From the NCBI GenBank assembly GCA_943355005.1, contig CALRDV010000002.1:131826-195825 (forward strand): a stretch of 64,000 nucleotides of DNA, written 5' to 3'. This stretch comes from Patescibacteria group bacterium. GTDB lineage: Bacteria > Patescibacteriota > Microgenomatia > UBA1400 > MFAQ01. Made by a program: the position numbers and the translations under genes. This document shows positions 8,651 through 52,404 of the stretch, in pieces (the first letter of the stretch is position 1; each line of letters starts with the position of its first letter). A model generated the notes under the pieces. It had not been told where the DNA came from, did no database searches, and was given only the letters and a program-made list of their open reading frames with translations.

Positions 8651-8693
8651 ATCGACTCGCCGTAGCTTTAGCAGAGGCGGTCATCGACATTTG

Positions 8694-8768
8694 TGAGCCC
8701 GGTGCGACTCGAACGCACGACCTCCTCCTTCGCAGGGAGGCGCTCTAATCCAACTGAGCTACGGACTC
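8694..8768 (-). tRNA. tRNA-Arg (anticodon GCG as read; could be ACG-type isoacceptor)
   Basis: The reverse complement is GAGTCCGTAGCTCAGTTGGATTAGAGCGCCTCCCTGCGAAGGAGGAGGTCGTGCGTTCGAGTCGCACCGGGCTCA, with anticodon loop CTGCGAA. Confidence 0.75.
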
Positions 8769-10085: not shown

Positions 10086-10127
10086 AACTTCAGTTTAAAC
10101 CATCTGGGCGGACCTGTCCGCCGGTAG

Positions 10128-10212
10128 GCGGAGGGGGCGGGATTCGAACCCGCGGTATCTTGCGATACGGAGGTTTAGTAAACCTCTGCACTCGACCACT
10201 ATGCGACCCCTC
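10128..10212 (-). tRNA. Type II (long variable arm) tRNA with atypical anticodon loop, reading ACU with a canonical 5-bp stem. Identity uncertain: Ser/Leu-like, or a pseudogene.
   Basis: The reverse complement is GGAGGGGTCGCATAGTGGTCGAGTGCAGAGGTTTACTAAACCTCCGTATCGCAAGATACCGCGGGTTCGAATCCCGCCCCCTCCG. Acceptor, D-arm, long variable arm and T-arm are good. The anticodon stem GAGGT/ACCTC encloses loop TTACTAA. Confidence 0.55.
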
Positions 10213-10217
10213 CACGG

Positions 10218-10299
10218 GCGGAGAGTACAGGGGTCGAACCTGTTAGGGCTTACGCCCATTAGTTTTCAAGACTAACGCATTACCGTCCTGCCCACTCTC
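10218..10299 (-). tRNA. tRNA-Ser (anticodon TGA), type II
   Basis: The reverse complement is GGAGAGTGGGCAGGACGGTAATGCGTTAGTCTTGAAAACTAATGGGCGTAAGCCCTAACAGGTTCGACCCCTGTACTCTCCG, with anticodon loop CTTGAAA. Confidence 0.8.
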
Positions 10300-10359
10300 C
10301 GTGTGTGCTTATTTTACCATTCCAAGTGCCTCTACTGGTAAAATAACTCTTGATCGTGA

Positions 10360-10441
10360 TGGAGGCGTCCGATAGTGGTTATTCGAGCGGGTTGCTAACC
10401 CGCGGCCCAAAAGGCCTCGTGGGTTCGAATCCCACCGCCTC
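10360..10441 (+). tRNA. tRNA-Ser (anticodon GCT), type II
   Basis: GGAGGCGTCCGATAGTGGTTATTCGAGCGGGTTGCTAACCCGCGGCCCAAAAGGCCTCGTGGGTTCGAATCCCACCGCCTCCG, with anticodon loop TTGCTAA. Confidence 0.8.
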
Positions 10442-10488
10442 CGCAAATTAAGTCTATTCGCCTTGCGCGAGTAGACTTAAATTTCGTT

Positions 10489-10592
10489 CGTGGGATTCGA
10501 ACAAGCCGGAACTAGTTTCGTAACGAACCTAGTGAGGCAGGTCTTGAGGCACCGAAGGTGACCGAAAGCGAATCCTTCTCCCACCGCCTCCG
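10489..10592 (+). repeat. tRNA-derived structured element, copy A (104 nt; possible small ncRNA)
   Basis: It starts with GTGGGATTCGAAC, the reverse complement of a T-arm. It ends with GCGAATCCTTCTCCCACCGCCTCCGC, whose last 14 nt are identical to the 3' end of tRNA-Ser(GCT), i.e. T-stem 3' strand + acceptor 3' strand + discriminator. It has an internal hairpin CTAG-T-TTCG-TAA-CGAA-C-CTAG and a duplicated heptamer TGAGGCA. It is followed by a strong bidirectional terminator. Confidence 0.6.
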
Positions 10593-10593
10593 C

Positions 10594-10637
10594 TAAAAAT
10601 AAATGTCCTCGCTTGTCGGGGACATTTATTTTTACCT
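10594..10637. terminator. Bidirectional rho-independent terminator
   Basis: A 14-bp perfect stem, AAAAATAAATGTCC / GGACATTTATTTTT, flanked by A-run and T-run. Confidence 0.7.
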
Positions 10638-19024: not shown

Positions 19025-19320
19025 TGCGAGACTCGACTTTAGGTCGGCCGTGGCAATCCCACACCACTGTCATTCCCGACCCGCTTCGCCATAGCTTCAG
19101 CGAGGCGAGCCTGAGTGGGCCGCTGGTACCCGAAGGGGGAAATCCCCCTCCACTCGTCATTGCGAGGAGTGAAACGACGTGGCAATCCCACACCACTGTC
19201 ATTCCCGACCTGATCGGGAATCTATATAGATAAATACCAATTTTTAACACCATGACTACTAGCACTTAGAGTTACGAGTGAGTACGGTTTTTGGCGGGCT
19301 TCGAAACGCGATAAAAAAAT
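19017..19320. repeat. Intergenic cluster of dispersed palindromic repeat elements (composite of at least four repeat types)
   Basis: Two copies of cgtcattgcgag-[hairpin]-gtggcaatccc, two copies of (cac)tgtcattcccgacc(tgatcgggaatc), one copy of gagtgggccgctggtacccgaagggggaaatcc, and one copy of agttacgagtgagtacggtttttggcgggcttcgaaac. The same units recur at more than 15 other places in the window. Confidence 0.8.
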
Positions 19321-21098: not shown

Positions 21099-21524
21099 AT
21101 GATAAAATTACCTTGCATGAAATATCTTTCCCGGCTGCTCGCCGCCACACTTCTATCTTGGTTTTTGCTTTTTCCCACTCTTACACACGCTGCAAGTCTC
21201 AACCTTGTCTCTCCCAGAGGTAACTGTGGAAACAACGAAATTGATACTGCTCTTGGCTGTATTTCCACAGAAGTGGGAACGGGTCCAAACACCTTCTTCA
21301 GTTCCATTATTGGCATCGCAGTCGGACTCGGTGGAGGTCTTGCCCTCCTTCTTATGCTTTATGGGGTCTTTATCGTCACCACCTCTGCCGGCATTCCGGA
21401 CAAGCTCAAGGAAGGCCAAGAAATTATTACCTCCGCCATCTCAGGTCTTATTTTTATCCTTCTCTCCGTCTTTCTCCTCAATTTCATCGGTATCAAAGTT
21501 TTAAGCCTACCTGGTTTACAATAG
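21099..21524 (+). CDS. Small two-TM secreted/membrane protein, putative VirB2/TrbC-like T4SS pilin paralog
   Basis: A classical signal peptide (cleavage near THA-AS), a Cys-containing mature region, and then two hydrophobic helices separated by a short polar loop (IVTTSAGIPDKLKEGQEI). Confidence 0.4.
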   Translation: MIKLPCMKYLSRLLAATLLSWFLLFPTLTHAASLNLVSPRGNCGNNEIDTALGCISTEVGTGPNTFFSSIIGIAVGLGGGLALLLMLYGVFIVTTSAGIPDKLKEGQEIITSAISGLIFILLSVFLLNFIGIKVLSLPGLQ

Positions 21525-21528
21525 AAAT

Positions 21529-21873
21529 ATGTTAAATTTCACCAAACAGGTCTATGCAGCTGCCGGTGGCACAGGAGTTGATATTTCAAGTATGGACAGC
21601 CCCGTCAAAGCCTTGATTCCCAACAATGCCGACCTGGGCAAATTATTCTCTCAACCCCTCCTCCGTTTTGTCTTTGTCGCCGTCGGTCTGGTTTTTATGT
21701 TTAATCTGGTCATGGCCGGCTGGGACCTTATGCTTAGCTCCGGAGATCCAAAGAAAGTTGCCACAGCCACCACCAGAGTCACCAACGGTTTTATGGGAAT
21801 AATTATATCGATGACGGCATATGTAGTTGTCAAAATCATCCTGACATTCTTAGGTCTAGGTACCATCATTTAA
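21529..21873 (+). CDS. Putative VirB2/TrbC-like pilin paralog
   Basis: An N-terminal leader MLNFTKQVYAAAGG, a first TM helix, the loop SSGDPKKVATA, and a second TM helix. This is the same architecture and loop motif as the 24167-26784 array. Confidence 0.5.
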   Translation: MLNFTKQVYAAAGGTGVDISSMDSPVKALIPNNADLGKLFSQPLLRFVFVAVGLVFMFNLVMAGWDLMLSSGDPKKVATATTRVTNGFMGIIISMTAYVVVKIILTFLGLGTII

Positions 21874-21900
21874 CAATCTCTTGTTATAATTCAAAACTGA

Positions 21901-22611
21901 ATGGAACCTTCAATAAAACACATTGCAATCTTGATGGACGGCAATCGTCGTTGGGCCAAACAAAAAGGTATGGAGCCTTTCAAGGGGCACGAGTACGCCG
22001 CCAACCATACAATTGAACCCCTTATTGAAAAATGTGTCGATCTAGGCATTCCCTATGTTACCTTTTGGGCCTTCTCCACCGAAAACTGGAAAAGGGATGA
22101 AACTGAAGTCAATGAACTTTTGAGAATATTTCGTTTTGCTTTCGGTGGTTTAGCCACCAGATTTATCAAGAGAGGAGCAAAGCTTAAAATTTTGGGGGAT
22201 ATTTCCCGCTTCCCTAAAGATATTGTTGAAAAATCTATCGAGACCATGAATAAGTCTTCACAGAACCATGCCATCACCGTTTCTTTTGCTCTAAATTATG
22301 GTGGTCGTGATGAGATCCTCCGAGCCGTCAAAAAAATCATTCAAGAAAAACTTACCTCTGACAACGTAAATGAAGAAATTTTTTCAGCTCATCTAGACAC
22401 TTCTGGTATGCCAGACCCGGATATGATCATCCGTACCGGAGGTGAACAAAGAACCTCCGGTTATCTACCTTGGCAGTCCGCCTACTCCGAACTTTTCTTC
22501 ACCCCCACCTTATTTCCCGACTTCACTCCCAACAAACTCGAAGAAATTATCCGCGACTTCAGCCACAGAGATAGACGATTCGGCGGCGACTCCACTCCAA
22601 AGACGAAATAA
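21901..22611 (+). CDS. uppS: Isoprenyl transferase (undecaprenyl diphosphate synthase)
   Basis: HIAILMDGNRRWAKQKG near the N-terminus and the family-typical C-terminal region ending FSHRDRRFGG. Confidence 0.9.
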   Translation: MEPSIKHIAILMDGNRRWAKQKGMEPFKGHEYAANHTIEPLIEKCVDLGIPYVTFWAFSTENWKRDETEVNELLRIFRFAFGGLATRFIKRGAKLKILGDISRFPKDIVEKSIETMNKSSQNHAITVSFALNYGGRDEILRAVKKIIQEKLTSDNVNEEIFSAHLDTSGMPDPDMIIRTGGEQRTSGYLPWQSAYSELFFTPTLFPDFTPNKLEEIIRDFSHRDRRFGGDSTPKTK

Positions 22612-22899
22612 AATCTCATCAGTTGCTGAAACATCAAAACCTTTTCTTTCAAATCTTTGTCTTATTTGCTGATAGCTACCAGTCAAAGGTATCTCTCCTC
22701 CGGGATACTTATAAATATTTAATTCTCGGTGATTCATTCTTTCTCCCGTAAAGCGCATATTAACAGGCTGATTCCGCCAATTTCGTGGTATTTCCATAAA
22801 AACAATCCTAAAACAATCCCCCCACCAAACACTCTCACGATTGTCACTCAGGTAAAGCCGAACATTTGGTGCAGAAGACTAGCCAACAAACCGCACGGA

Positions 22900-22990
22900 A
22901 GCTGTACATAGGAGCCGAAGGGAATCCCGCTAATGCGGGACGAGATAGTTACGAGTGAGTACGGTTTTTGGCGGTCTTCGAACCAACAAG
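22900..22990. repeat. Dispersed repeat copy (agttacgagtgagtacggtttttggcggtcttcgaacc type plus flanking unit)
   Basis: Matches 19265-19315 at ~90% identity. Located between the uppS and polyprenyl synthetase genes. Confidence 0.6.
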
Positions 22991-22995
22991 TGAAG

Positions 22996-24078
22996 CTAGA
23001 CTTCCCTCTCCACCATATACAAAGCAATCCCCTCAAGATAATTCACAGCTTCCTCATTTAATCCTATTCCGTGGAGCTTGGCCACACTACCACTCGCTCG
23101 TTTTGCATAATTCCTAGCCACTTCCACCGAATATTTATAAGAACCGCTTTCTTTAATGGCCTTTTTCGCCACTTCTATTTCATTTTTATTGGCATCCAAT
23201 TTCCCCCAAACTCTCATCAAGTCAATTTTTTGCTCCTTAGATCCTATCTCCATTGTCTTGGACACCAACAAAGTAACCTTTCCTTGTAACAAGTCAGAAT
23301 TTGCCGACTTTCCTGTTTTTTCTTCATCTCCATATACTCCCAGTACATCGTCTTGAAGTTGAAATGCGATACCCGCATCTACCGAATAATCATGCAGGAC
23401 ATCCATCGTCTCACGATTTAGCCCGGAAAGAATTCCTCCTATCAATAGTGGGTTTTCATAAGTATAAATCGCTGTCTTTGCCCTATGAAGACTCATTACT
23501 TTCTCTTCGGACATGTCTCCAAGTTTTGGCAAACTCGTGTCATACGCTTGTCCATAAGCAGTATTAGTTATCCCTCTCAGAAATTGTTTCATTGCATTAT
23601 TTACCTTTTCCGAGTCAAAACCACTAGTCAAAAGCCTCTCAAAACCCAGGCATAAGACAGCATCTCCCACATTCACCGCCATACTATCTCCATAATGTTC
23701 ATCACCATTTGCAAAAAATACTTGAGTTGTCGGCAAACCCCTTCTCACCAAATCTCTATCCATAAAATCGTCATGCATTAATAATGCTGTGTGAACAAGT
23801 TCCACTGCCTCCGCAGCCCTCCAAACTCTTTCATCAGACTTTATTCCACCAAGTAAAAAGCTGTAATAAATAAATGATGCCCTAATTCTCTTGGCTTTTC
23901 TTAAATTGTGTTCCTTAGCGTGAAGCAACATCTTTCTTATCAATTCTTTTTGTGATTGATTGAATCCAAAATTACTGGCAATCTCTTCCTCCCAATACTT
24001 TTCCAGCCTAGAATCAGCCTCTTTGGCTAACAGCTCCAATCTAGCTTTTGCCCGTCTACCTAAGTCATTTGTTTCCAT
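22996..24078 (-). CDS. Polyprenyl synthetase family protein (trans-isoprenyl diphosphate synthase)
   Basis: First and second Asp-rich motifs (LMHDDFMDRD and FQLQDDVLGVYGDEEKTGKS). Confidence 0.85.
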   Translation of the reverse strand: METNDLGRRAKARLELLAKEADSRLEKYWEEEIASNFGFNQSQKELIRKMLLHAKEHNLRKAKRIRASFIYYSFLLGGIKSDERVWRAAEAVELVHTALLMHDDFMDRDLVRRGLPTTQVFFANGDEHYGDSMAVNVGDAVLCLGFERLLTSGFDSEKVNNAMKQFLRGITNTAYGQAYDTSLPKLGDMSEEKVMSLHRAKTAIYTYENPLLIGGILSGLNRETMDVLHDYSVDAGIAFQLQDDVLGVYGDEEKTGKSANSDLLQGKVTLLVSKTMEIGSKEQKIDLMRVWGKLDANKNEIEVAKKAIKESGSYKYSVEVARNYAKRASGSVAKLHGIGLNEEAVNYLEGIALYMVEREV

Positions 24079-24093
24079 GTCTCCAATTTTACT

Positions 24094-24113
24094 GTAAAAT
24101 GACAGTAATCCAT
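24094..24113. promoter_or_regulatory. Inverted repeat TTACTGTAAAATGACAGTAA in the divergent promoter region upstream of the pilin array
   Basis: Half-sites TTACTGT(A) / (T)GACAGTAA. The site is ~55 nt upstream of the first pilin ATG and ~20 nt upstream of the divergently transcribed polyprenyl synthetase gene. Confidence 0.35.
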
Positions 24114-24166
24114 AAATTAATAAGGATTACGTCATCCTCGACCTGATCGAGGATCCACAAATACAT

Positions 24167-24487
24167 ATGATTATTCGACCAGCCCTGGCAGCCTTAGAAC
24201 CTCTAGAAGGACTTTATGCCCCGGGAAAAGCCATGGGAGGTAGTGGGGCTACTCTATCCACTCTACTAAATCCGCTAATTTATAATTTCCTCATCATCTC
24301 CGGAATTCTTGCTTTCATTGTCATTATTTTCGCCGGTTTTAGCTACATCACCGCTTCAGGGGACAAAGGAAAAATTGAGATGTCCCAGAACATGCTAAAC
24401 TATGGCATACTAGGTTTAATTGTTGTTGTTTTGGCCTTTTTAATTACTCGAGTTATTGGAGCCGTCTTTGGCTTTAAATTCTTTTAA
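24167..24487 (+). CDS. VirB2/TrbC-like pilin paralog 1
   Basis: 106 aa: TM1 (LIYNFLIISGILAFIVIIFAGF), loop TASGDKGKIEMSQN, TM2 (ILGLIVVVLAFLITRVIG). Confidence 0.55.
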   Translation: MIIRPALAALEPLEGLYAPGKAMGGSGATLSTLLNPLIYNFLIISGILAFIVIIFAGFSYITASGDKGKIEMSQNMLNYGILGLIVVVLAFLITRVIGAVFGFKFF

Positions 24488-24493
24488 ATACTT

Positions 24494-24862
24494 ATGATAA
24501 ATAATTTAAAATATTTTACATCTACCGTCTACGCAGCAGCTGGTGATGTCGTAGGAATTATAGATCTACCGGTAGGTGTTCCAAAAGAAGTTGTTCAAAC
24601 TACAGATATTATATCTGCCCTCATCCGCTTTTTAATCGTTATTGCCGGACTTTTCTCTCTTTTTCAATTTATAACCGGAGGTATCGCTTTTATTTCCTCT
24701 GGTGGTGACAAAGGTAAAATCACAGAAGCCCAAAACAAAATTCAAATGAGTATTATTGGACTAGTCATTATTACTGCTAGTTTTATAATCATCGCTCTCG
24801 TCAGTAGAATACTTTTCGGATCTTTTACCGCCATACTCGCACCAAAATTACAATCAATCTAA
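24494..24862 (+). CDS. VirB2/TrbC-like pilin paralog 2
   Basis: Leader MINNLKYFTSTVYAAAGD, TM1, loop SSGGDKGKITEAQ, TM2. Confidence 0.55.
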   Translation: MINNLKYFTSTVYAAAGDVVGIIDLPVGVPKEVVQTTDIISALIRFLIVIAGLFSLFQFITGGIAFISSGGDKGKITEAQNKIQMSIIGLVIITASFIIIALVSRILFGSFTAILAPKLQSI

Positions 24863-24863
24863 A

Positions 24864-25232
24864 ATGTTTAAAATTATATCTCCCATCTATGCATCTAACC
24901 CTATTGATTTAGGAAAGGAAATAGAGGGGTCCGGAGTATACCAAACAGGCATAAGTTCTACTGTTCAAACCAGTTTTGGAGGTTTTATTTCTTCTGTTAT
25001 TACTACACTAACTGTTGTTGGTAGTCTAGCCTTCGTTGTTTACTTTACTGTCGCGGGACTAAAATGGATTAGCGCCGGCGGCGACAAGGGCAAAGTAGCC
25101 GAAGCTCAAACCCAAATGACCCAATCCGCCATCGGCCTAATCGCCATTGTAGCCTCTTACTTTATCATCGGCATTGTCGGTGCCGTCCTTGGTTTAGATA
25201 TTCTCAATCCATTTAAAGCGCTTAAATTTTAA
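24864..25232 (+). CDS. VirB2/TrbC-like pilin paralog 3
   Basis: Leader MFKIISPIYASNP, TM1, loop SAGGDKGKVAEAQ, TM2. It starts 2 nt after paralog 2. Confidence 0.55.
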   Translation: MFKIISPIYASNPIDLGKEIEGSGVYQTGISSTVQTSFGGFISSVITTLTVVGSLAFVVYFTVAGLKWISAGGDKGKVAEAQTQMTQSAIGLIAIVASYFIIGIVGAVLGLDILNPFKALKF

Positions 25233-25236
25233 TAAC

Positions 25237-25590
25237 ATGATCATACAAATAGCCCAACCTGCTCTAGCTGCCGATGAAATAGTAAACAATGCCATCTCTA
25301 GCAAAGTCACCAGTTTAGGTGCGGGTGGAGGTCTAGCTTTTTACATTGCCACTCTCTGGCAAACCGTAATCACCGTAGGAGGCATCGCCTTCATTATTTA
25401 TCTCGTTTGGGGTGGCATAGAGTATCTCACTTCAGGGGGTGACAAGGGTCGGATTGACGATGCTCAGAAAAAAATTACCAGTTCTGTAATCGGTATTGTG
25501 ATCCTTGTTGCTTCCTACTCCATCACCTATTTCATCCAACAGGTCTTCAAGATTAACATTCTCAAACCTGTATTTCCCAACGCACTATGA
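25237..25590 (+). CDS. VirB2/TrbC-like pilin paralog 4
   Basis: Leader MIIQIAQPALAADE, TM1, loop TSGGDKGRIDDAQ, TM2. Confidence 0.55.
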   Translation: MIIQIAQPALAADEIVNNAISSKVTSLGAGGGLAFYIATLWQTVITVGGIAFIIYLVWGGIEYLTSGGDKGRIDDAQKKITSSVIGIVILVASYSITYFIQQVFKINILKPVFPNAL

Positions 25591-25949
25591 TCACAAGTTT
25601 TATTCCCAAAGTATTCGCCGCCGCCGATATAGAACTCCCTATCGGCGACACTGTTACCAAAAATAACTTTTTTGGCTATACATGCATCGGCCATCTCGTT
25701 AGCAACTTAGTTAGCGCCGCTTTTATTATTTCAGGTATCGCTTTCTTTGTTATCTTGGTCATGGGTGGAGTCCAGTGGCTGGTCTCAGGTGGCGACAAGG
25801 GTAAAGTCGAAAGTGCTCAGAAAAGTATTTCTGCAGCTCTCATCGGTTTAGCTATAGTTGCCAGTAGTTACGCTGTTTATATCTTAGTTCTTGAGTTCTT
25901 CGGTATCAATCTCGACGCGCTCTGTACAGCTAACCCACTAGGAAATTGA
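25587..25949 (+). CDS. VirB2/TrbC-like pilin paralog 5
   Basis: Leader MITSFIPKVFAAADI, TM1, loop VSGGDKGKVESAQ, TM2. It overlaps paralog 4 by 4 nt. Confidence 0.55.
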   Translation: MITSFIPKVFAAADIELPIGDTVTKNNFFGYTCIGHLVSNLVSAAFIISGIAFFVILVMGGVQWLVSGGDKGKVESAQKSISAALIGLAIVASSYAVYILVLEFFGINLDALCTANPLGN

Positions 25950-26011
25950 CAAGACTAAAATCATATATAATAGTAAGTATTACGAATATCAATTATTAAA
26001 AAATAAAAAAT

Positions 26012-26353
26012 ATGTCCTTTATTTCCCAAGTCTACGCAGCTACCGGCCAACTAGGAGTTCCCCAACCAACGGGTATGAAAATCACCGATATCGGTGTTCT
26101 TATTAGTCGTGTCATTTCCGTCGCCTTTATTATTGCCGGCATCCTTACCTTCGCTTTCTTAGTCATGGGTGGTATCGAGTGGCTAACTTCAGGTGGAGAC
26201 AAAGGTAAAACCGAAAGCGCCAGAAACCGTATCACTGCCGCTATCGTCGGTCTTGCCATCGTCGCCGCATCATGGGCTCTAATGAAACTCATTGCCTACT
26301 TCTTCGGTGTCGACGTCTTCGAGGGAAACATCAATATCCCTAAACCTTACTAA
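26012..26353 (+). CDS. VirB2/TrbC-like pilin paralog 6
   Basis: Leader MSFISQVYAATGQ, TM1, loop TSGGDKGKTESAR, TM2. Confidence 0.55.
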   Translation: MSFISQVYAATGQLGVPQPTGMKITDIGVLISRVISVAFIIAGILTFAFLVMGGIEWLTSGGDKGKTESARNRITAAIVGLAIVAASWALMKLIAYFFGVDVFEGNINIPKPY

Positions 26354-26372
26354 GCATTTAGGATTAGAAAAT

Positions 26373-26402
26373 AAAAAATCCCGGTTACCCGGGTTTTTTT
26401 AT
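26373..26402 (+). terminator. Rho-independent terminator
   Basis: AAAAAATCCCGGTTACCCGGGTTTTTTTAT: a GC-rich 7-bp stem followed by T7. Confidence 0.7.
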
Positions 26403-26418
26403 AATATATAATCAAATC

Positions 26419-26784
26419 ATGTCATTCCAATTAGTTACACAAGCTTATGCTGCGAGCTGGGCTTCAATTGATCCAGCATGTGTCGGCTCACAAATTGGCT
26501 CTGTAGATGCCAGTGATGTCGTCACCATTGGTGGTATTAAATGTTTAATTGCTAACCTTCTTTCTCCCATTCCTGGACTCATCGCTCTAGTGGCTGTCGG
26601 TGTACTCATCATGGCAGGTATTCGTCTTATGTCTGCCGGAGCCGAGCCCAAAGCCATCGCCAGCGCTTGGAACATGTTCACTTACGCCATCATCGGTCTC
26701 ATTCTTCTTGCAGTAGTTTGGCTAGTTCTTGTAATAATCGAGAACTTCACCGGAGCTCAGGTAACCAAATTCGGAATCCCTTAA
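26419..26784 (+). CDS. VirB2/TrbC-like pilin paralog 7 (divergent)
   Basis: Leader MSFQLVTQAYAASWA, TM1 (LLSPIPGLIALVAVGVLIMAGI), loop SAGAEPKAIASAW, TM2. Its own promoter-like ATAATATATAAT box follows the upstream terminator. Confidence 0.5.
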   Translation: MSFQLVTQAYAASWASIDPACVGSQIGSVDASDVVTIGGIKCLIANLLSPIPGLIALVAVGVLIMAGIRLMSAGAEPKAIASAWNMFTYAIIGLILLAVVWLVLVIIENFTGAQVTKFGIP

Positions 26785-38080: not shown

Positions 38081-39136
38081 ATGGCTATTCAACAGCATCC
38101 ACTACCACAGGACATTAGCTCCTATCGCTTCCGCCTAATTGGCGATATGACTATCAAGCAGTTTGCCTCTCTTGGCATCTGTATTGTTTTAGCCATTATT
38201 GCGTACAGTATGCCCCTCCCTTTCTTTTTTAAATACCCTTTAGCCTTTATGTTTATCGTACTAGGCGTAGGTATGGCTTTTGTCCCCGTTCAAGGACGTT
38301 CTCTGGATGTTTGGATTCTTGCTTTTATCCGTTCCATTTATTCTCCGACTCAATATACATGGAAACGTTCTGAAGAAACTGTTTCAAATGAAATGTCTAT
38401 GAAGAGTAATGGAGTGGGTACTCAAGCAGTTACAAACGCCAGAATCGAACTCACCCAAGCTCCCGCTTCAGTCCCCAATACTCCATCTGTCTCCATCACC
38501 CCTCCTGCATCAGAGCCAAAAACAGAAGAGAGACTCGAAATAACTCCTCCACCATCCGTCATTGCGAACCCGCCTTCAGAGGGTGTGGCAATCCAGGCTA
38601 CAAATCAAACCGAAGTCCCAGTTCCTGAATTAGGAAAAATTATAACTTCCTTAGCCCCAGTAATACCTACCGAGCCGGAAAAACCCACCCAACCAATAAC
38701 ACTTACTGTCATTCCGGGCTTGACCCGGAATCCATCTGGTACATCAGACGCCCAATCGACACCATCCGTCATTGCGAGAGACCTACCCGCTGTGGAAGGA
38801 GCACGGCAATCTAGTTTACCAGCCACCCCATCAACTAACCCTCCCCAGCAAACCCAGCTCCCCATCCCCTACACCCCCACTACCCCAAACACTCTCGTTG
38901 GACTTACGTTGTCTCCGGAAGGTAAAATTTTGGACGGGGTCATGGTAGAAATTCAGAGAAACGGTCTAACTTCCAGAGCCACCAAAAGTAACAAACTTGG
39001 CCAATTTATGTTCGCCAGACCTTTGGAAAATGGCTTGTATCAAATCCTCGCCGAAAAAGATTCTTTTACCTTTTCACCATACTCTTTAGATCTTACCGGC
39101 ACTATTATCCGACCTCTTAAAATCCAAGCACAATAA
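38081..39136 (+). CDS. PrgI/VirB3-like membrane protein with C-terminal carboxypeptidase-regulatory-like domain. It contains in-frame palindromic repeat insertions.
   Basis: The N-terminus (YRFRLIGDMTIKQFASLGICIVLAIIAYSMP ... AFMFIVLGVGMAFVP) has the two-TM PrgI-like pattern. The C-terminus (LTLSPEGKILDGVMVEIQRNGLTSRATKSNKLGQFMFARPLENGLYQILAEKDSFTF) resembles a CarboxypepD_reg beta-sandwich. The central Pro/Thr linker includes VIPGLTRNPSGTS and PSVIARDLP, which are encoded by copies of the dispersed repeats. Confidence 0.45.
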   Translation: MAIQQHPLPQDISSYRFRLIGDMTIKQFASLGICIVLAIIAYSMPLPFFFKYPLAFMFIVLGVGMAFVPVQGRSLDVWILAFIRSIYSPTQYTWKRSEETVSNEMSMKSNGVGTQAVTNARIELTQAPASVPNTPSVSITPPASEPKTEERLEITPPPSVIANPPSEGVAIQATNQTEVPVPELGKIITSLAPVIPTEPEKPTQPITLTVIPGLTRNPSGTSDAQSTPSVIARDLPAVEGARQSSLPATPSTNPPQQTQLPIPYTPTTPNTLVGLTLSPEGKILDGVMVEIQRNGLTSRATKSNKLGQFMFARPLENGLYQILAEKDSFTFSPYSLDLTGTIIRPLKIQAQ

Positions 39137-46983: not shown

Positions 46984-47229
46984 CGTGGATAAGTGGAGAC
47001 TAGCTTCAGCACGTGCCTGTTTTTCGTGTTACTAAGTTTTTATCGACTCATACATCCATCCTTTTGTCTCTTTGTCTCAGAATCTACTCACAAAAATAAA
47101 CTAACAACTCTATATTCTTGTGGATTCTTTTCTGGATAACTTGGCGACTTGTCCACCTACTTTTAAAATTTTAAAGACTTCTGCACACTTTGAATAGATA
47201 TCCACAGCACGTGGATAACTTGTGGATAT
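46984..47229. promoter_or_regulatory. oriC-like DnaA-box cluster between dnaA and dnaN, with adjacent AT-rich unwinding region (~46881-46980)
   Basis: Matches to TTATCCACA or its complement: CGTGGATAA (~46984), TGTGGATTC (~47119), CTGGATAAC (~47132), TTGTCCACC (~47149), ATATCCACA (~47198), CGTGGATAA (~47210), TGTGGATAT (~47221). There is another box, CTATCCACA, at ~48672 upstream of dnaA. Confidence 0.65.
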
Positions 47230-48681
47230 TTACGTGTATAACGCTTGTTTTAGTGCATTAACTTTTCGCCTGATATCCACGTTTTCTTCTATCTGCACTT
47301 TCATTTTTTCGACCGCGTGCATTACTGTTGTATGATCTCTCCCGCCCATCAGTTCGGCAACTTCGGTCAAATTTAGGTCGAGGATATCTCTCAAGATATA
47401 CATCGTAATGTGTCTAGCTACCACCAAGTCCGCTTTTCTACTGGTACCCAAAAGATCTTTATTTCGGAAATCAAAGTATTTGGCGACGGTAGAAATTACT
47501 TTGAGTGGTCTGACTTTAATATCCTTCACTGTGCTTGATGGTAGTCCTAGGTTCTTCTGTACCATTTCTTTGGTCAGCACTACCCCGTCCAAGTTTGCTG
47601 TTGCCGCCAACTGTCCAAAAGTTCCCTCCAGTTCTCTGGCATTCGTAGGGAAGCTGGTAGCCATAAGCTCAAACGCGCCATCGTCAACATCCACTTTAAG
47701 ATCAAGTGCTCTCTGTTTGAGTATTGCGAGTCTCATTTCATAATCAGGTAAGCCAATATCCACCATCATTCCTCCGAGGAATCTACTACGGAGCCTTGCT
47801 TCCAATCCCACAATCTCTTGGGGCTTGCGATCGCTCGTCATAATTATTTGTACTTGCCTATTCGTCAATTCATTGAAAGTGTGGAAGAACTCTTCTTGTG
47901 TTGAATCTTTTCCTCCAAAAAACTGTACATCGTCGACGAGAAGAGCTCCCACTTGGCGATACTTCTTCTTAAAAGCGTCAACAAGTTTAGATTTAAAAGA
48001 ACCGACCAGGTCGTTGGTAAACTGTTCGCTGGTAATGCACATAATTTTTCCAACTCCTTTTTTGACCAGTTCGTGCCCTACTGCATGCATCAAGTGAGTC
48101 TTCCCTACTCCAACCCCTCCATATATAAATAGAGGATTATGTCTCGTCCCGGGGAAATCTACCACTGCCTTGCCGGCAGCGAAAGCCAACCTATTCGAAC
48201 TTCCGACCATATAAGATTCAAAGTGATATCTGGGATTAAGATTTGTGTTGGTAGACTTGCTATCTTCTTGTGGTGCGAAGAGACCGATGTTTGTCTCATT
48301 AGGTTTTGCGCTTTCAAAATCCTTTTTCGGGTATTTTGTCTCTTTGTTTTGCTCTATTACAAGCAGTGCAATGTCACATCTTTTTCCTGAAATTTTCTCA
48401 GCAGACTGCTTTATGATGCTGTAATACTTGGTTTCAACTGTGTGACTCAGAAATGCCGACGGAGTTACTAGTTCAAGGAGTAGTCTTTCTTCATCAATGG
48501 AAGTAATAGAACGTAAATAACAAGGCTTGATAAAGCCCGCAAAACTTGCCGGAGTCATAGATACACCAAGCTCTCCGCAAATACTATGCCATAATTTCTC
48601 ACTGTCCATACCGTCATTCTCAACACTTATCCACATTTTTACAACCCCCAATTTACCCAAAAAGACTACTACTATCCACAT
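47230..48681 (-). CDS. dnaA: Chromosomal replication initiator DnaA. The true start is probably the internal ATG at ~48609.
   Basis: AAA+ Walker A GGVGVGKTHLMHAVG, Walker B LLVDDVQF, and the C-terminal DNA-binding domain (ADLVVARHITMYILRDILDLNLTEVAELMGGRDHTTVMHAVEKM). The first 24 codons of the track ORF overlap a DnaA box. Confidence 0.9.
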   Translation of the reverse strand: MWIVVVFLGKLGVVKMWISVENDGMDSEKLWHSICGELGVSMTPASFAGFIKPCYLRSITSIDEERLLLELVTPSAFLSHTVETKYYSIIKQSAEKISGKRCDIALLVIEQNKETKYPKKDFESAKPNETNIGLFAPQEDSKSTNTNLNPRYHFESYMVGSSNRLAFAAGKAVVDFPGTRHNPLFIYGGVGVGKTHLMHAVGHELVKKGVGKIMCITSEQFTNDLVGSFKSKLVDAFKKKYRQVGALLVDDVQFFGGKDSTQEEFFHTFNELTNRQVQIIMTSDRKPQEIVGLEARLRSRFLGGMMVDIGLPDYEMRLAILKQRALDLKVDVDDGAFELMATSFPTNARELEGTFGQLAATANLDGVVLTKEMVQKNLGLPSSTVKDIKVRPLKVISTVAKYFDFRNKDLLGTSRKADLVVARHITMYILRDILDLNLTEVAELMGGRDHTTVMHAVEKMKVQIEENVDIRRKVNALKQALYT

Positions 48682-48755
48682 CAGTTCTCTTCCGTTGCTT
48701 TTCTAGGGTATAATACTAAACAGTCACGTGATTCTCACGCAACAAACAAAACCCT

Positions 48756-48893
48756 ATGCCAAAAAGAGTATACCAACCAAAAAAAGTCAAACGTATTAGA
48801 AAGCACGGTTTTCGTATCAAGATGGCCTCAGCTGGTGGTCGAAACGTAATCAAACGTCGCCGAGCCAAAGGTAGAACCAAGTTAGCCCTCTAA
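48756..48893 (+). CDS. rpmH: 50S ribosomal protein L34
   Basis: Hand translation gives [45 protein letters not shown], which matches the L34 consensus (...THGFRARM...GR.V...RR.KGR..L). The stop appears to overlap the rnpA ATG (TAATG). It is too short for the supplied ORF track. Coordinates are +/-1. Confidence 0.7.
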
Positions 48894-49240
48894 TGCCTCT
48901 TCCGGCCATAAACCGGCTTCCCCTTCGATTTGAAAGAGATCGCCTTACACGTGAGGGTCGTTCATTCCACACCCGTCACTTTACCCTCGTCACCGCACCC
49001 TTTGACTCGCCAGAGCTGAAAGCGACGGCGAGCCGCTTCTCCATCCTCCTCTCGAAAAAAACCGCCCGCCTAGCCGTCGACCGCAATCTCATTAAACGCC
49101 GTACCTCCGCCATCCTGGCCCAAATACTCCTCTCCTTCCCTCCGGCCGATTACCTAATCATCCCCAAACGCTCCGTTCTGGACACCCCCCTCCCCGAACT
49201 TCTCTCCGACCTCTCCACTGCCATCCCCAAACTCAGATAA
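48893..49240 (+). CDS. rnpA: Ribonuclease P protein component
   Basis: 115 aa, basic, with LLSKKTARLAVDRNLIKRR (the RnpA RNR-like motif). It is in the conserved rpmH-rnpA order. The gene is conspicuously GC-rich (~57%) relative to its surroundings. Confidence 0.8.
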   Translation: MPLPAINRLPLRFERDRLTREGRSFHTRHFTLVTAPFDSPELKATASRFSILLSKKTARLAVDRNLIKRRTSAILAQILLSFPPADYLIIPKRSVLDTPLPELLSDLSTAIPKLR

Positions 49241-49242
49241 TG

Positions 49243-49277
49243 TTGTCATTCCCGACCCGATCGGGAATCCATTCTCT
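49243..49277. repeat. Dispersed palindromic repeat copy (gtcattcccgacccgatcgggaatcc)
   Basis: Located immediately after the rnpA stop codon. Stem TTCCCGA/TCGGGAA. Confidence 0.7.
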
Positions 49278-49365
49278 CTATTCACCCCATAACTATACTT
49301 TTGCTTGATTTACAGCTACAATCCCCTCAGAAAGTATCCGCACGTTTAAAAAGGAGAAAAACCAA

Positions 49366-49887
49366 ATGTCCGACTCAAATTGGATTACTGACGCAATTGA
49401 AAAAGGAAAAAGCAAAAAGAATAAGTCCGACGAACTTAGAAAACAAATAGAAGTTCAAAAACAACTAGACAAAAAGAGAAAAATCGAAGAAAGTAAAACA
49501 CTATTTTGGATGGTCTGTGGAAAAAGTTATTCTGAAATAGAGAATCTATTGTCGAATAGGTCTGGGTTGAACATTACAACTTACCGTGGTGAAATTGTGA
49601 GTCATGTACATACACCTATAGTCACCTCATACTATGATGAAGTCCATGTCGACAATGAAGGAGGATCCGTTTACCAACATGCATGTACATATGGGGTAAC
49701 TTGGACAATTAACTTTCACGATAAACAGATGGAATTTTCTTTAGTTGTGAAAAGATACACAAATACTAAAATGGTATTATTTGTGATACCTTTTGAAGAA
49801 GTAAAATACACCCCATCTACAAACGTAGAAAAGGTTAAAAAAATGATCGAGGATTGGCTCATCGAGATTTATTCCGAACAAAAATAA
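49366..49887 (+). CDS. Hypothetical protein
   Basis: 173-aa ORF with a good RBS (AAAAAGGAGAAAAACCAAATG) and a rho-independent terminator just downstream (ACAGGGCCGAGACCCTGTTTTTTT). Confidence 0.5.
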   Translation: MSDSNWITDAIEKGKSKKNKSDELRKQIEVQKQLDKKRKIEESKTLFWMVCGKSYSEIENLLSNRSGLNITTYRGEIVSHVHTPIVTSYYDEVHVDNEGGSVYQHACTYGVTWTINFHDKQMEFSLVVKRYTNTKMVLFVIPFEEVKYTPSTNVEKVKKMIEDWLIEIYSEQK

Positions 49888-49944
49888 CCACCGAACAGGG
49901 CCGAGACCCTGTTTTTTTATACAAAAAAGCAGGGTCTCCCCTGC

Positions 49945-50280
49945 TTAAAATTCTAAATCAACAATTAATTTCTTATTCAAGATACTATTTGTTTTAACTT
50001 CAATATAAAGTTTTGCTCGGGCAATCTTAAGCTCAAAATCAAGCTGTGCAATCGACACTGCCATATCAACAATCTCTTGCGGTACATCTACTGTTCCTAG
50101 TAAAGCATAATCTTCTTGATCAAGATTAAAGCCGGTAAATGCGTAAACTTGCTTGTCGACGACATTGATACATAATCTACCCAGCTCCTCAATTATCAAC
50201 CTTCGCATTAATCTTCCTCCCCCGCGACCAAAGTCCAAAACACTATCCGGAACCCTCTGACTAATTAGTTTAGCTTTCAT
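49945..50280 (-). CDS. Hypothetical protein (111 aa)
   Basis: ORF with its own terminator hairpin on the minus strand (AAGCAGGGGAGACCCTGCTTTTTT). No motif recognised. Confidence 0.4.
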   Translation of the reverse strand: MKAKLISQRVPDSVLDFGRGGGRLMRRLIIEELGRLCINVVDKQVYAFTGFNLDQEDYALLGTVDVPQEIVDMAVSIAQLDFELKIARAKLYIEVKTNSILNKKLIVDLEF

Positions 50281-50330
50281 GATAGCTCCTTTTAAAGTCC
50301 TAAGTCTTGCCCCTATTCTATCAGAATCAA

Positions 50331-50930
50331 TTATTTTATAGACGAGTTTAAAATCTTCGCCATTTCCTCTATTACTTGCTCCCCACTCTCATACTTAATT
50401 CCTTTAATCCCAAATTCTTTAGATGCTTCCAAATTATCCTCAGAATCATCTACATATATACATTCCTCACCTTTCAAATCGTTCTCAATCAGCAAGTTTT
50501 GAAAAGCCATTGGATCCGGTTTTACAAATCCTGTTTCCCAGGAAAAATAAGACTTATCAACTACTTCAAATAGCTCCGGAAAATATTTTCTGTAATACTC
50601 AGTCCTCTCCTTAAAATTATTTGAAAGGGTAAAAACCTTAAATCCACCATCTCTTAAAGATCTGGCATAATTACACATCTGATCGTTTATAGACTCACCA
50701 GAGAAGTAAAATTCAAAAAACTCATCCAATCTCATACCGACCAAATTCAATAAAGGTGTCCAGACCTCTTCACCTTTGCGGACAGTGTTCCTTACCTCCT
50801 TAAGGATTGGCTTCATCACCCCAAGAATCTCCTCTAAGGATTTATCTGATTTTTCCGCCAGTCTTTCACTGAGGTTTTTACTTAGTAGGAAGACTCCATT
50901 CAAATCAAAGATTACTGCTTTTATGGGCAT
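50331..50930 (-). CDS. HAD superfamily hydrolase
   Basis: N-terminal VIFDLNGVF (motif I) and a C-terminal YVDDSEDNLEASKEFGI (motif IV region). Confidence 0.65.
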   Translation of the reverse strand: MPIKAVIFDLNGVFLLSKNLSERLAEKSDKSLEEILGVMKPILKEVRNTVRKGEEVWTPLLNLVGMRLDEFFEFYFSGESINDQMCNYARSLRDGGFKVFTLSNNFKERTEYYRKYFPELFEVVDKSYFSWETGFVKPDPMAFQNLLIENDLKGEECIYVDDSEDNLEASKEFGIKGIKYESGEQVIEEMAKILNSSIK

Positions 50931-50966
50931 ACGGCTAATTTTATCAGTTCGAGATATAATTCAACC

Positions 50967-51197
50967 GTGATTTCCTTCTACCAAAAATACATTTCTCCTT
51001 ACTACCACGCCCTAGGTCATGCCCTTTTTGGGGATACTTTTGCTTGTCGTTTCTCTCCTACTTGTTCCGAGTACTCCAGACAAGCCTATTCTTCATATGG
51101 TATTATTGTCGGGACAAAACTCTCCGTCAGTCGCTTCCTCCGATGTCAACCTTTTAGTAAAGGCGGACTAGACCCACTACCTGCTAAAATCAAATAA
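50967..51197 (+). CDS. yidD: Membrane protein insertion efficiency factor YidD
   Basis: 76 aa: YQKYISPYY ... CRFSPTCSEYSRQA ... G..KG..RLLRCHP-like pattern. Confidence 0.8.
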   Translation: MISFYQKYISPYYHALGHALFGDTFACRFSPTCSEYSRQAYSSYGIIVGTKLSVSRFLRCQPFSKGGLDPLPAKIK

Positions 51198-51199
51198 CT

Positions 51200-51937
51200 A
51201 TGCTCGCACCACTAAACAACCTTCTCTATCAATCTCTCGTCTTTTTCTATCATCTCTTTGGTGGTAATTTGGGCTTACCTATCATTGCTATTACTCTCAT
51301 CACAAAGTTAGTTCTCCTTCCTTTAGTTCTTCCGTCCATGAAATCAGCCAAGAAGATGCAAGATCTAAAGCCACATCTAGATAAACTAAAATCTAAACAT
51401 ACAGACAAGAAAGATCTCCAGACAGCACAAATGGCTCTTTACAAAGAGCACGGTATCAATCCTGCTGCCGGATGTCTCCCTCAAATTGTTCAGATTATCA
51501 TTCTCATTGCCCTCTACGGAGTCTTTATAGACTTTATTAAACAGCCTTCTATTGGCGGTGTAGTGGTTAATCCGCATTTCTTATATTTAGATCTTACAAA
51601 ACCTGACCATACCTATATCATGCCGGTACTTGCAGGATTAACTCAGCTAATCTTCTCTCTTATGATGCAGTCAGGGGTTGAATCACATGTTGTCAATCCA
51701 AAAAATAAAGAAGAGAAGAAAAAAGAAGAAGATAACTTGGAAATGGCAGCCAGTATGCAACAGCAGATGATCTACATGATGCCTCTAATGACTGTCCTTA
51801 TTTCACTCAACTTCCAATCTGGTCTTATCCTCTACTGGGTTGCTTCCACCGTTTTCTCCATTATTCAGCAGTACTACTTCTCCGGTCTAGGCGGTCTCAA
51901 ACCCGTCCTACTTAAACTAAAGATTATTAAACAATAA
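51200..51937 (+). CDS. yidC: Membrane protein insertase YidC/Oxa1 family (short Gram-positive type)
   Basis: 245 aa, 5 TM: IITKLVLLPL, QMALYKEHGINPAAGCLPQIVQIIILIALY, PLMTVLISLNFQSGLILYWVASTVFSIIQQ. Confidence 0.8.
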   Translation: MLAPLNNLLYQSLVFFYHLFGGNLGLPIIAITLITKLVLLPLVLPSMKSAKKMQDLKPHLDKLKSKHTDKKDLQTAQMALYKEHGINPAAGCLPQIVQIIILIALYGVFIDFIKQPSIGGVVVNPHFLYLDLTKPDHTYIMPVLAGLTQLIFSLMMQSGVESHVVNPKNKEEKKKEEDNLEMAASMQQQMIYMMPLMTVLISLNFQSGLILYWVASTVFSIIQQYYFSGLGGLKPVLLKLKIIKQ

Positions 51938-51942
51938 TAAAA

Positions 51943-52404
51943 ATGGACCAATCAAAAGTAACCGAAATACTTTCTAATGTCTTAACTCAGCTGGAGTTAA
52001 AAGATGAACAAATTAAAATTGAAGTCGCCGACGAAGATAATATCAGTATCTTGCTTACTCCTTCCACGGACGCTGCCGGTATTTTTGTTGGTCACCACGG
52101 TGAAGGTCTCGCTTCTCTTCGGATGATTTTCTCACTCATGATCTACCAGCGATTTGGTGTCTGGCCCAAACTTCATCTAAATGTAAATGACTACCAAGAG
52201 CGTCGAGAAGACTCTCTCAAAGAACTGGCTCAAAATGCAGCCGATCGCGCCATCTCTCTACAGAAAGAAATCATTCTTCCTAATCTCAGTTCCTATGAGC
52301 GACGAATAATTCACCTATTCTTGGAAGAAGTTCCGGGTGTCCGCACCGAATCCCGAGGTGAAGCCCCCTATCGCCAGATGGTAATCATCCCCACGGCAGA
52401 ATAA
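51943..52404 (+). CDS. jag: Jag/KhpB-like RNA-binding protein (KH + R3H domains)
   Basis: The C-terminal LSSYERRIIHLFLEEVPGVRTESRGEAPYRQMVIIP is the R3H motif region. It sits in the conserved position after yidC. Confidence 0.7.
   Translation: MDQSKVTEILSNVLTQLELKDEQIKIEVADEDNISILLTPSTDAAGIFVGHHGEGLASLRMIFSLMIYQRFGVWPKLHLNVNDYQERREDSLKELAQNAADRAISLQKEIILPNLSSYERRIIHLFLEEVPGVRTESRGEAPYRQMVIIPTAE

Follow-up and report, generated by a model that had tools for sequence, protein, structure and literature searches.

Why is a single short housekeeping gene far richer in guanine plus cytosine (GC) than the genes beside it, and why does it lie apart from the gene that it normally adjoins? Both questions are raised by rnpA, the gene of the RNase P protein, in a 64-kb stretch (hereafter the window) of contig CALRDV010000002.1 of a Patescibacteria group bacterium, a member of the Collierbacteria within the candidate phyla radiation. 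A sequence-only reading of this DNA had estimated rnpA at roughly 57% GC, had pointed to three genes and a repeat copy inserted between rnpA and yidD, and had proposed that rnpA was replaced by horizontal transfer, that the conserved rpmH-rnpA-yidD-yidC-jag cluster was invaded, or both. Comparison of the window with 23 related Collierbacteria loci of roughly 16 kb, retrieved from genomes and metagenomes, argues instead that rnpA is native and vertically inherited, and that its GC-rich composition is a derived trait which arose in the ancestor of one clade. Furthermore, the rnpA-yidD junction is, judging from the same comparison, an old and recurrently remodelled accessory slot and not the site of one recent three-gene invasion.

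Composition and ancestry of rnpA

Composition was determined over 58 non-overlapping open reading frames (ORFs) of the window, which has 40.7% GC overall, and codon usage was scored with an index resembling the codon adaptation index (CAI) and built on the window's own codon usage. By GC content rnpA ranked first of the 58 (57.2% against an ORF mean of 41.5 ± 4.4%, z about +3.6), and it ranked first as well in GC at third codon positions (GC3; 63.8% against 39.2 ± 7.2%, z about +3.4). The GC maximum over all 348-nt windows of the 64 kb starts at 48881, and the remaining GC peaks coincide with tRNA clusters or with short hairpin repeats. The coding strand of rnpA contains 41.7% C and 15.5% G, the C content being again the highest of all ORFs (mean 19.6 ± 6.0%, runner-up 29.2%), and its CAI-like index was the lowest (0.590 against 0.758 ± 0.029 for the other ORFs, z about -5.8). 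The GC excess over the flanks amounts to 15-18 points and is present at all three codon positions; rpmH, directly upstream, is ordinary at 44% GC, and the inserted genes are AT-rich at 34-37%. The earlier estimate was thus borne out, rnpA being the most extreme ORF in GC, in C and in codon usage.

The product of rnpA matched PF00825 full-length (residues 6-113, 56.3 bits, cut-off 22.3) and the TIGR00188 equivalog (45.2 bits, cut-off 38.35). The gene keeps its canonical position: in the window and in its nearest relative, L081, the rpmH TAA and the rnpA ATG share one base (TAATG), and in the other relatives rnpA starts 2-6 nt past the rpmH stop. Several simple sources of the GC excess were rejected. 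The rnpA coding DNA is single-copy in the window and only the hairpin of about 30 nt downstream of it is repeated, which excludes a repeat-derived composition. No Rfam match at E <= 1 was found within 48300-49500 and rnpA showed no excess of RNA structure (fold z = -0.36); together, these results rule out a hidden RNA gene or structure as the cause. Likewise, an overlapping or antisense gene was dismissed, as the search revealed only three separate antisense ORFs of 40-45 amino acids and no long alternative frame.

The related loci were divided into clade A (the window, L081, L001-L003, L087, L088, L090, L084, L082, L083 and L091), clade B (L004-L009 and L092-L095, 10 loci) and the outgroups L085 and L096. 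The gene order dnaN-dnaA/rpmH-rnpA-yidD-yidC-jag-Wzy_C-like-rnhA, with the slot between rnpA and yidD, is kept in all relatives wherever the contig reaches; what varies is the rnpA-yidD gap. Neighbour-joining trees of RnpA, of DnaA and of six concatenated core proteins, built on short proteins and carrying no support values, recovered the same clades. RnpA evolves fast in all clades, and the ratio of RnpA to DnaA divergence is 1.73 between the clades, 1.75 within clade A and 3.57 within clade B. Because the trees are congruent and this ratio is not raised between the clades, a replacement of rnpA from outside is not indicated. In addition, a search among 5.8 billion proteins gave 58 RnpA homologues with 43-88% identity, all of them from the Collierbacteria/Microgenomates range. 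The suspected horizontal replacement was thus upheld neither by the phylogeny, in which RnpA groups as DnaA and the core genes do, nor by the homologues, and the anomaly that had suggested it proved to be clade-wide and persisting.

In each of the 13 clade A members, the window included, rnpA has a GC content of 0.49-0.59 and a C content of 0.33-0.44, L082 and L083 being intermediate at 0.49 GC; this compares with 0.35-0.45 GC in the clade B loci and with 0.39 and 0.46 in the outgroups, while the GC content of the locus is 0.38-0.455 in all clades. From clade B to clade A, GC3 rises by about +0.27 in rnpA and by +0.06 to +0.13 in each of dnaN, dnaA, yidD, yidC, jag, the Wzy_C-like gene and rnhA. 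The difference in GC content between rnpA and its flanks falls between +0.07 and +0.18 for clade A members and stands at -0.009 ± 0.046 for 126 unrelated rnpA loci gathered by the same scans as the relatives. The GC difference from clade B sets in at the start codon of rnpA and is lost 60-90 nt past the stop. Saturation was measured as composition-corrected retained identity at fourfold sites under conserved residues. In clade A, dnaA and yidC approach saturation at their fourfold sites (mean retained identity about 0.10-0.11 over all pairs, 0.05-0.19 against the window), whereas at the fourfold sites of rnpA the C content is 0.50-0.75 in every member, and the GC anomaly is highest in the clade A crown. 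Since the synonymous sites of its neighbours are near saturation and rnpA has kept its C, its composition is actively maintained and is no relic of a transfer.

Third-position C/(C+T) in rnpA rises from 0.40-0.50 in clade B to 0.66-0.71 in clade A, a 2.7-fold change in odds, and third-position G/(G+A) rises from 0.20 to 0.37, a 2.4-fold change. As the two changes are similar, the AT-to-GC shift is symmetric. The plus strand has a negative GC skew in every 2-kb bin of the window (-0.01 to -0.41) without a change of sign at dnaA, and third-position C/(C+T) is 0.45 in the plus-strand genes of the window against 0.26 in its minus-strand genes. Once this strand skew is allowed for, the symmetry of the shift argues against a C-specific force, for example a Rho-utilisation (rut) site. 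Selection for translational accuracy was rejected as well, because C at third positions (C3) of clade A rnpA is alike at invariant (0.49) and variable (0.51) residues. The protein itself has changed, clade A RnpA having become richer in Leu, Arg, Pro and Ala and poorer in Lys, Val, Gln, Ser and Asn.

A separate observation concerns the first ten rnpA codons (48896-48925, CTTCCGGCCATAAACCGGCTTCCC), which are synonymously conserved across the clade A crown and contain a CCGG-N7-CCGG mini-hairpin; the constraint on them may come from translational coupling to rpmH.

The variable slot between rnpA and yidD

The genes rpmH, rnpA, yidD, yidC and jag are all present in the window, in the same order and on the same strand, and the three genes and the repeat copy described earlier do lie between rnpA and yidD, in a gap of 1726 bp with one gene on the plus and two on the minus strand. 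Of the 11 loci outside clade A that show both genes, 9 have rnpA and yidD side by side: the two are adjacent or overlapping in L004, L005, L008, L009, L085, L093, L094 and L095 and separated by 13 bp in L096, the exceptions being L006 and L007 with gaps of 532 and 927 bp. Within clade A, L091 has a gap of 52 bp and the remaining members have gaps of 650-2510 bp, so that the range over all loci is -8 to 2510 bp. Hence the proposed invasion of the cluster stands in so far as rnpA and yidD are contiguous in most loci outside clade A, but it does not stand as a single recent event, the slot being old.

Four recurrent families and singletons were found inside the gap. Bro-N proteins occur in L001-L003, L007, L082, L083 and L087, the family of the 173-residue hypothetical protein (hyp173) in the window, L002, L006, L083 and L084, HAD hydrolases in the window, L081, L087 and L088, and the family of the 111-residue hypothetical protein (hyp111) in the window and L084. 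In L003, a gene of a HIT-family hydrolase (10138-10611, minus strand) was observed beside yidD, in the same place as the HAD genes. The HAD hydrolase of the window is common to L081, L087 and L088 at 62-68% identity and is an older resident of the slot. The hyp173 family, counted in the slot of at least five further lineages, recurs directly 3' of rnpA and has the conserved motifs NWI.DA, EIE.VLS and PS.TA..VE..IK.WL. L081, with a DnaA 90% identical to that of the window, is homologous through 48700-49241 and again from 50349; the 1.1-kb segment 49242-50348, comprising the hairpin repeat, hyp173 and hyp111, is the only part of the slot missing from it.

Neither hyp173 nor hyp111 matched a family above cut-off in Pfam, PHROG, NCBIfam or PADLOC (the best, sub-cut-off, was ROS_MUCR with 18 bits). 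A k-mer homology search gave self matches only, a PDB profile search gave a best E of 0.1 and no phage matches were obtained. A HMMER scan of hyp173 against 1.84 billion representatives yielded only 2 remote matches, and the single-sequence AlphaFold models of hyp173 and hyp111, with predicted local distance difference test (pLDDT) scores of 45 and 50, were too poor for use. Each of the inserted genes had been credited with a terminator of its own. This holds for hyp173 and hyp111, which are followed by convergent terminator-like hairpins with T-runs, but the terminator scan showed none between the HAD gene and hyp111; hyp111 and the HAD gene, which lies upstream, probably form one operon.

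No integrase or transposase and no defence system was matched by Pfam, PHROG or PADLOC in the window cargo or in ten further proteins from the slot and the dnaA-rpmH spacer of relatives, and the only domains in these scans were Bro-N, HAD and HIT. No target-site or att repeats were seen at the slot, which has one copy of a dispersed hairpin repeat at its left edge. Small orphan genes were also observed in the dnaA-rpmH spacer of relatives (L094 4094-4735 on the minus strand, L085 7248-7766, L084 403-954). The gene in L094 is a member of the hyp173 family, and because this copy sits in the dnaA-rpmH spacer, the family appears to move between origin-proximal intergenic sites.

In the history that we propose, rnpA and yidD abutted ancestrally, and several lineages have gained, lost and exchanged members of the hyp173 family, Bro-N, HAD/HIT, hyp111 and hairpin repeats. 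Filling of the slot left rnpA as the last gene of the rpmH operon, while yidD-yidC-jag would have gained a promoter of their own. A TATAAT is present at 50955-50960 on the plus strand, 6 nt upstream of the yidD GTG and inside the 36-bp HAD-yidD spacer, and L081 likewise has a TATAAT just upstream of the annotated yidD start. This suggests a separate, possibly leaderless, promoter for yidD-yidC-jag. Such a slot in an uncultivated lineage could be useful for strain tracking and possibly as a neutral insertion site.

The repeat copy reported after rnpA is real: the 28-nt repeat TGTCATTCCCGACCYGATCGGGAATC (49243-49270) has three further copies in the window, at 19199, 60232 and 60419, making four where 0.01 are expected by chance, and it forms the left edge of the segment missing from L081. 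Since the hairpin has no T-run, it is no canonical intrinsic terminator. In most clade A lineages, GC-rich hairpin repeats of several families lie in frame at one surface loop of RnpA (after residue ~38), where they add 11-35 residues and their stems reach -39 kcal/mol. The rnpA of the window is without such an insert and has a 13-residue loop with a 27-nt mini-hairpin only. These loop repeats do not explain the GC anomaly, because clade A rnpA still has 0.48-0.59 GC when the loop is removed.

Two families of short GC-rich hairpin repeats, TCATTCCCGACCYGATCGGGAAT and ATTCCGGGCTTGACCCGGAAT, were seen dispersed in the window (19199, 49246, 60232, 60419; and 38711, 54255, 61219), and related GTCATTGCGAG...GGCAATC hairpins lie near the dispersed repeats. 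The core octamer GTCATT[CG]C of such repeats is mostly missing from the sister-clade loci.

Candidate causes of the GC shift

Whatever the cause, we regard as probable the general picture of a native rnpA under sustained local pressure towards GC, with a symmetric and ORF-confined shift that is maintained clade-wide beside a slot with turnover. As the source of this pressure we tentatively place recombination ahead of the other candidates. A persistent AT-to-GC substitution pressure, limited to the rnpA ORF, would have acted since the ancestor of clade A; the strand skew, with C over G on the plus strand, would turn it mainly into extra C, and the same pressure would drag the composition of the RnpA protein along. 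It would arise from repeated homologous exchange and repair at the slot flanks and at the site of hairpin-repeat insertion in rnpA, with either GC-biased repair or a higher efficacy of selection for GC in an AT-rich genome as its possible mode of action. Both the hypothesis of GC-biased gene conversion (Lassalle et al. 2015) and the alternative of selection efficacy are discussed in a 2024 survey, which found genic GC positively correlated with recombination rate in most bacterial species and, in low-GC species, most strongly correlated with the strength of purifying selection (PMC11879095). In our loci, the window and L081 are 87-98% identical over 48470-49070, compared with 75-82% in dnaA, and their retained identity is 0.73 in rpmH, 0.66 in rnpA and 0.45 in yidD, with 0.19 in dnaA and 0.18 in yidC. 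Retained identity is 0.88 in yidD between L001 and L002, and 0.63 in rpmH and 0.56 in rnpA between L002 and L003. Such mosaic blocks of low divergence, together with the loop repeats and the turnover of cargo, hint at recombination at the slot flanks.

Several points weigh against this explanation as a whole or against recombination as the cause. The signs of recombination come from few pairs and small numbers of sites. The trees behind the clade assignments carry no support values, and that of RnpA misplaces the outgroup L085 inside clade A. Genes flanking accessory regions showed no strong rise in recombination in the survey cited above (PMC11879095). The opposite flank of the slot, yidD, shows no rise in GC3 beyond the background (about +0.10, compared with +0.27 in rnpA), and enrichment ignoring gene boundaries was looked for on both slot flanks and found to stop at the rnpA ORF. 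In L091, rnpA has 0.56 GC and yidD, 52 bp away, has 0.44, which indicates neither a spread past the ORF nor a need for present-day cargo, and the clade B loci L006 and L007 have slot cargo and an ordinary rnpA; a dependence of the trait on cargo was rejected on the basis of these three loci. A shift that stays within the ORF is better explained by selection on the gene or its transcript than by a conversion tract. A literature search found no papers on RNase P of Collierbacteria.

Selection on rnpA expression, in which the GC-rich, rare-codon composition would tune the output of the gene, is possible though somewhat doubtful. It might slow or limit the translation of RnpA, translationally coupled through TAATG to the abundant L34, or protect the 3'-terminal stretch of the rpmH-rnpA mRNA from AU-directed RNases, rnpA being the last gene of the operon. 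In E. coli, the expression of rnpA lies far below that of rpmH, and the gene has codons of weak expression. The enrichment in clade A does not extend beyond the ORF by more than 60-90 nt, and this holds for L091 too, in which only 52 nt separate the stop from yidD; moreover, the codon usage of rnpA is the most atypical of the 58 ORFs and its start overlaps the rpmH stop. Measured against DnaA, RnpA also evolves more slowly in clade A, with a ratio of 1.75, than in clade B, with one of 3.57, which fits the link between purifying selection and genic GC in low-GC bacteria (PMC11879095). Nevertheless, codon positions 1 and 2 are equally shifted and the protein is changed, neither of which is needed for pure codon tuning, C3 does not differ between conserved and variable residues, and RNA structure gives no signal (z = -0.36). 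The yidD flank, L091 and the sharp edges of the ORF keep expression selection a serious rival to recombination. An ancient horizontal replacement at the base of clade A, by an in-situ copy from a GC-richer close Microgenomates lineage whose composition persisted, seems improbable. In its favour are composition and codon usage, which are classic signals of an alien gene, a shift that looks abrupt at the split of clades A and B, with the basal L091 already at 0.56 GC, and the position of rnpA beside a slot that takes up foreign DNA. However, the trees are congruent with no excess of RnpA divergence on the branch between the clades, no closer homologue outside the group was present among the 5.8 billion proteins, L082 and L083 are intermediate, and neither mobility genes nor a duplicated target were found. 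Furthermore, with the synonymous sites of the neighbours saturated, an unmaintained composition should have ameliorated, and the crown is instead the highest.

A rut site is more improbable still: the C-rich, G-poor and unstructured second half of rnpA would load Rho and end the rpmH-rnpA transcript before the cargo. Over nt 135-360, rnpA does contain 42-53% C and 9-18% G and is largely unpaired in the predicted fold, and no T-run terminator follows the gene. On the other hand, G is not depleted with regard to other plus-strand genes, third-position G/(G+A) rising in clade A as described above, the third-position C:G of 4.3 is typical of the plus-strand genes of the window (3.6-6), and L091 has the trait with yidD still adjacent. 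No papers on Rho in the candidate phyla radiation were found in a literature search. As the source is a metagenome assembly (ENA ERZ27280309, contig k141_1878606, 255 kb) whose gene calls skip rnpA, the GC-rich block could also be taken for an assembly chimera or contamination; this is scarcely credible, given that at least 12 independent assemblies, made in different projects, show the same arrangement and composition and that the intact ORF shares one base with the rpmH stop and matches RnpA over its whole length. The remainder of the probability falls to some other cause. Rather unlikely, in our judgement, is the stronger proposition that the GC content of rnpA is a selected cis-acting property, a governor of dosage or mRNA fate coupled to L34, or else a clean single-gene hotspot of AT-to-GC conversion tied to hairpin insertion and the slot. 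A 350-bp gene kept this GC-rich through saturating divergence provides a natural test case for selection versus biased gene conversion. The case of rnpA is a curiosity of molecular evolution and a caution for gene finding and for transfer calls based on composition, not a new kind of system.

Neighbouring features and known systems

The public gene calls for the source contig (L167; 48700-51200 of the window) list dnaA, hyp173, hyp111, the HAD gene and yidC and omit rpmH, rnpA and yidD. An exact look-up found no record of the exact RnpA product, the gene being uncalled in the source assembly. Its atypical codon usage is probably why rnpA escapes the gene finder, and the RNase P protein could thus be scored missing in such candidate phyla radiation genomes. 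DnaA-box-like 9-mers cluster at 46984-47229 (5 copies) and at 48627-48680 (2 copies); because the latter fall inside an N-terminal extension of the longest dnaA ORF, the true start is probably the ATG at 48636. The coordinates of the features are given in Table 1.

Table 1. Features of the rnpA region of the window, and stretches of related loci that contain the RnpA-loop inserts.
Feature	Position	Strand	Evidence and remarks
dnaA	47230-48681 (longest ORF)	-	Pfam Bac_DnaA 2.7e-58, Bac_DnaA_C
rpmH (ribosomal protein L34)	48756-48893	+	Pfam Ribosomal_L34 1.8e-19
rnpA (RNase P protein, 115 aa)	48893-49240	+	Pfam PF00825 3.9e-15; TIGR00188
GC-rich hairpin repeat TGTCATTCCCGACCCGATCGGGAATCCA	49243-49270	+	starts 3 nt past rnpA stop; folded hairpin
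hyp173 (173 aa)	49366-49887	+	GC 33.7%; rare Collierbacteria-restricted family, by clustering and alignment
terminator-like hairpin with T-run, after hyp173	49893-49914	+	terminator scan
terminator-like hairpin with T-run, after hyp111	49946-49927	-	terminator scan
hyp111 (111 aa)	49945-50280	-	orphan; one homologue, in the same slot of L084, 34% identity
HAD-IA hydrolase	50331-50930	-	Pfam Hydrolase 3.5e-13, TIGR01509; divergent from yidD
yidD (right flank of the slot)	50967-51197	+	Pfam YidD 3.9e-21
yidC (short form, 245 aa)	51200-51937	+	Pfam 60KD_IMP 3.5e-48
jag/khpB (KH and R3H domains)	51943-52404	+	Pfam R3H 2.2e-15, KH_KhpA-B
RnpA-loop insert	L001 3257-3658		
RnpA-loop insert	L002 8001-8390		
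RnpA-loop insert	L003 8001-8453		
RnpA-loop insert	L083 1455-1859		
RnpA-loop insert	L084 1228-1611		
RnpA-loop insert	L087 5001-5399		
RnpA-loop insert	L088		
RnpA-loop insert	L090		

Elsewhere in the window, about ten tandem paralogous small ORFs (106-141 amino acids), all matching Pfam T4SS_pilin (PF18895), occupy 21099-26784 on the plus strand, and a PrgI-family protein lies downstream of this array, with 38081-39136 (plus strand) belonging to the same observation. Together, the array and the PrgI-family protein resemble a conjugation-like or type IV secretion cluster in which the pilin array has expanded. ARAGORN identified five tRNA-Ser genes within 6.9-10.4 kb, one of them with the unusual anticodon ACT (10127-10213, minus strand), and a tRNA-Arg(GCG) at 8693-8768.

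Rickettsia palindromic elements, reportedly described by Ogata et al. in 2000 as selfish hairpin repeats inserted in frame in protein genes, have a counterpart in the in-frame hairpin repeats of RnpA in L001-L003, L083, L084, L087, L088 and L090, whereas the rnpA of the window carries no dispersed repeat in frame. With the bacterial origin-proximal cluster dnaA/rpmH-rnpA-yidD-yidC-jag the locus shares the genes, their order and orientation, the overlap of rpmH with rnpA and the presence of DnaA boxes in spacers. In the sister clade and the outgroups, rnpA and yidD are still contiguous or overlapping; the window and its close relatives differ in the 0.65-2.5 kb of variable DNA between the two genes, and the window differs also in a GC skew that keeps its sign at dnaA. 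In Staphylococcus, orfX/rlmH with SCCmec is an origin-proximal integration hotspot beside a housekeeping gene (PMC11879095), and the rnpA slot is likewise a case of a core gene near the origin flanking variable accessory DNA. In contrast to SCCmec, the slot showed no recombinase, no att repeats and no large element; its cargo amounts to 1-4 small genes, some of which are old residents that diverge together with the host.

As in recombination-associated GC enrichment of bacteria, the shift in rnpA is symmetric, affects all codon positions, is equal at constrained and free residues and lies beside a variable region with mosaic blocks; it differs in being limited to one ORF, with the yidD flank unenriched, and in being present in a lineage without cargo (L091). 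Alien genes in general deviate in composition and codon usage as rnpA does, but the gene tree of rnpA is congruent, its closest homologues are in its own lineage and its anomaly is not ameliorating. The gene is more similar to native genes misread as alien by composition methods, with which it shares outlier GC, GC3 and codon usage, a congruent phylogeny and conserved synteny, although here it is a single short housekeeping gene that is kept 15-18 GC points above its flanks clade-wide. Hence rnpA, an essential gene with the strongest alien signal in 64 kb that is nevertheless native, provides a clean counter-example to calls of horizontal transfer made from composition only.

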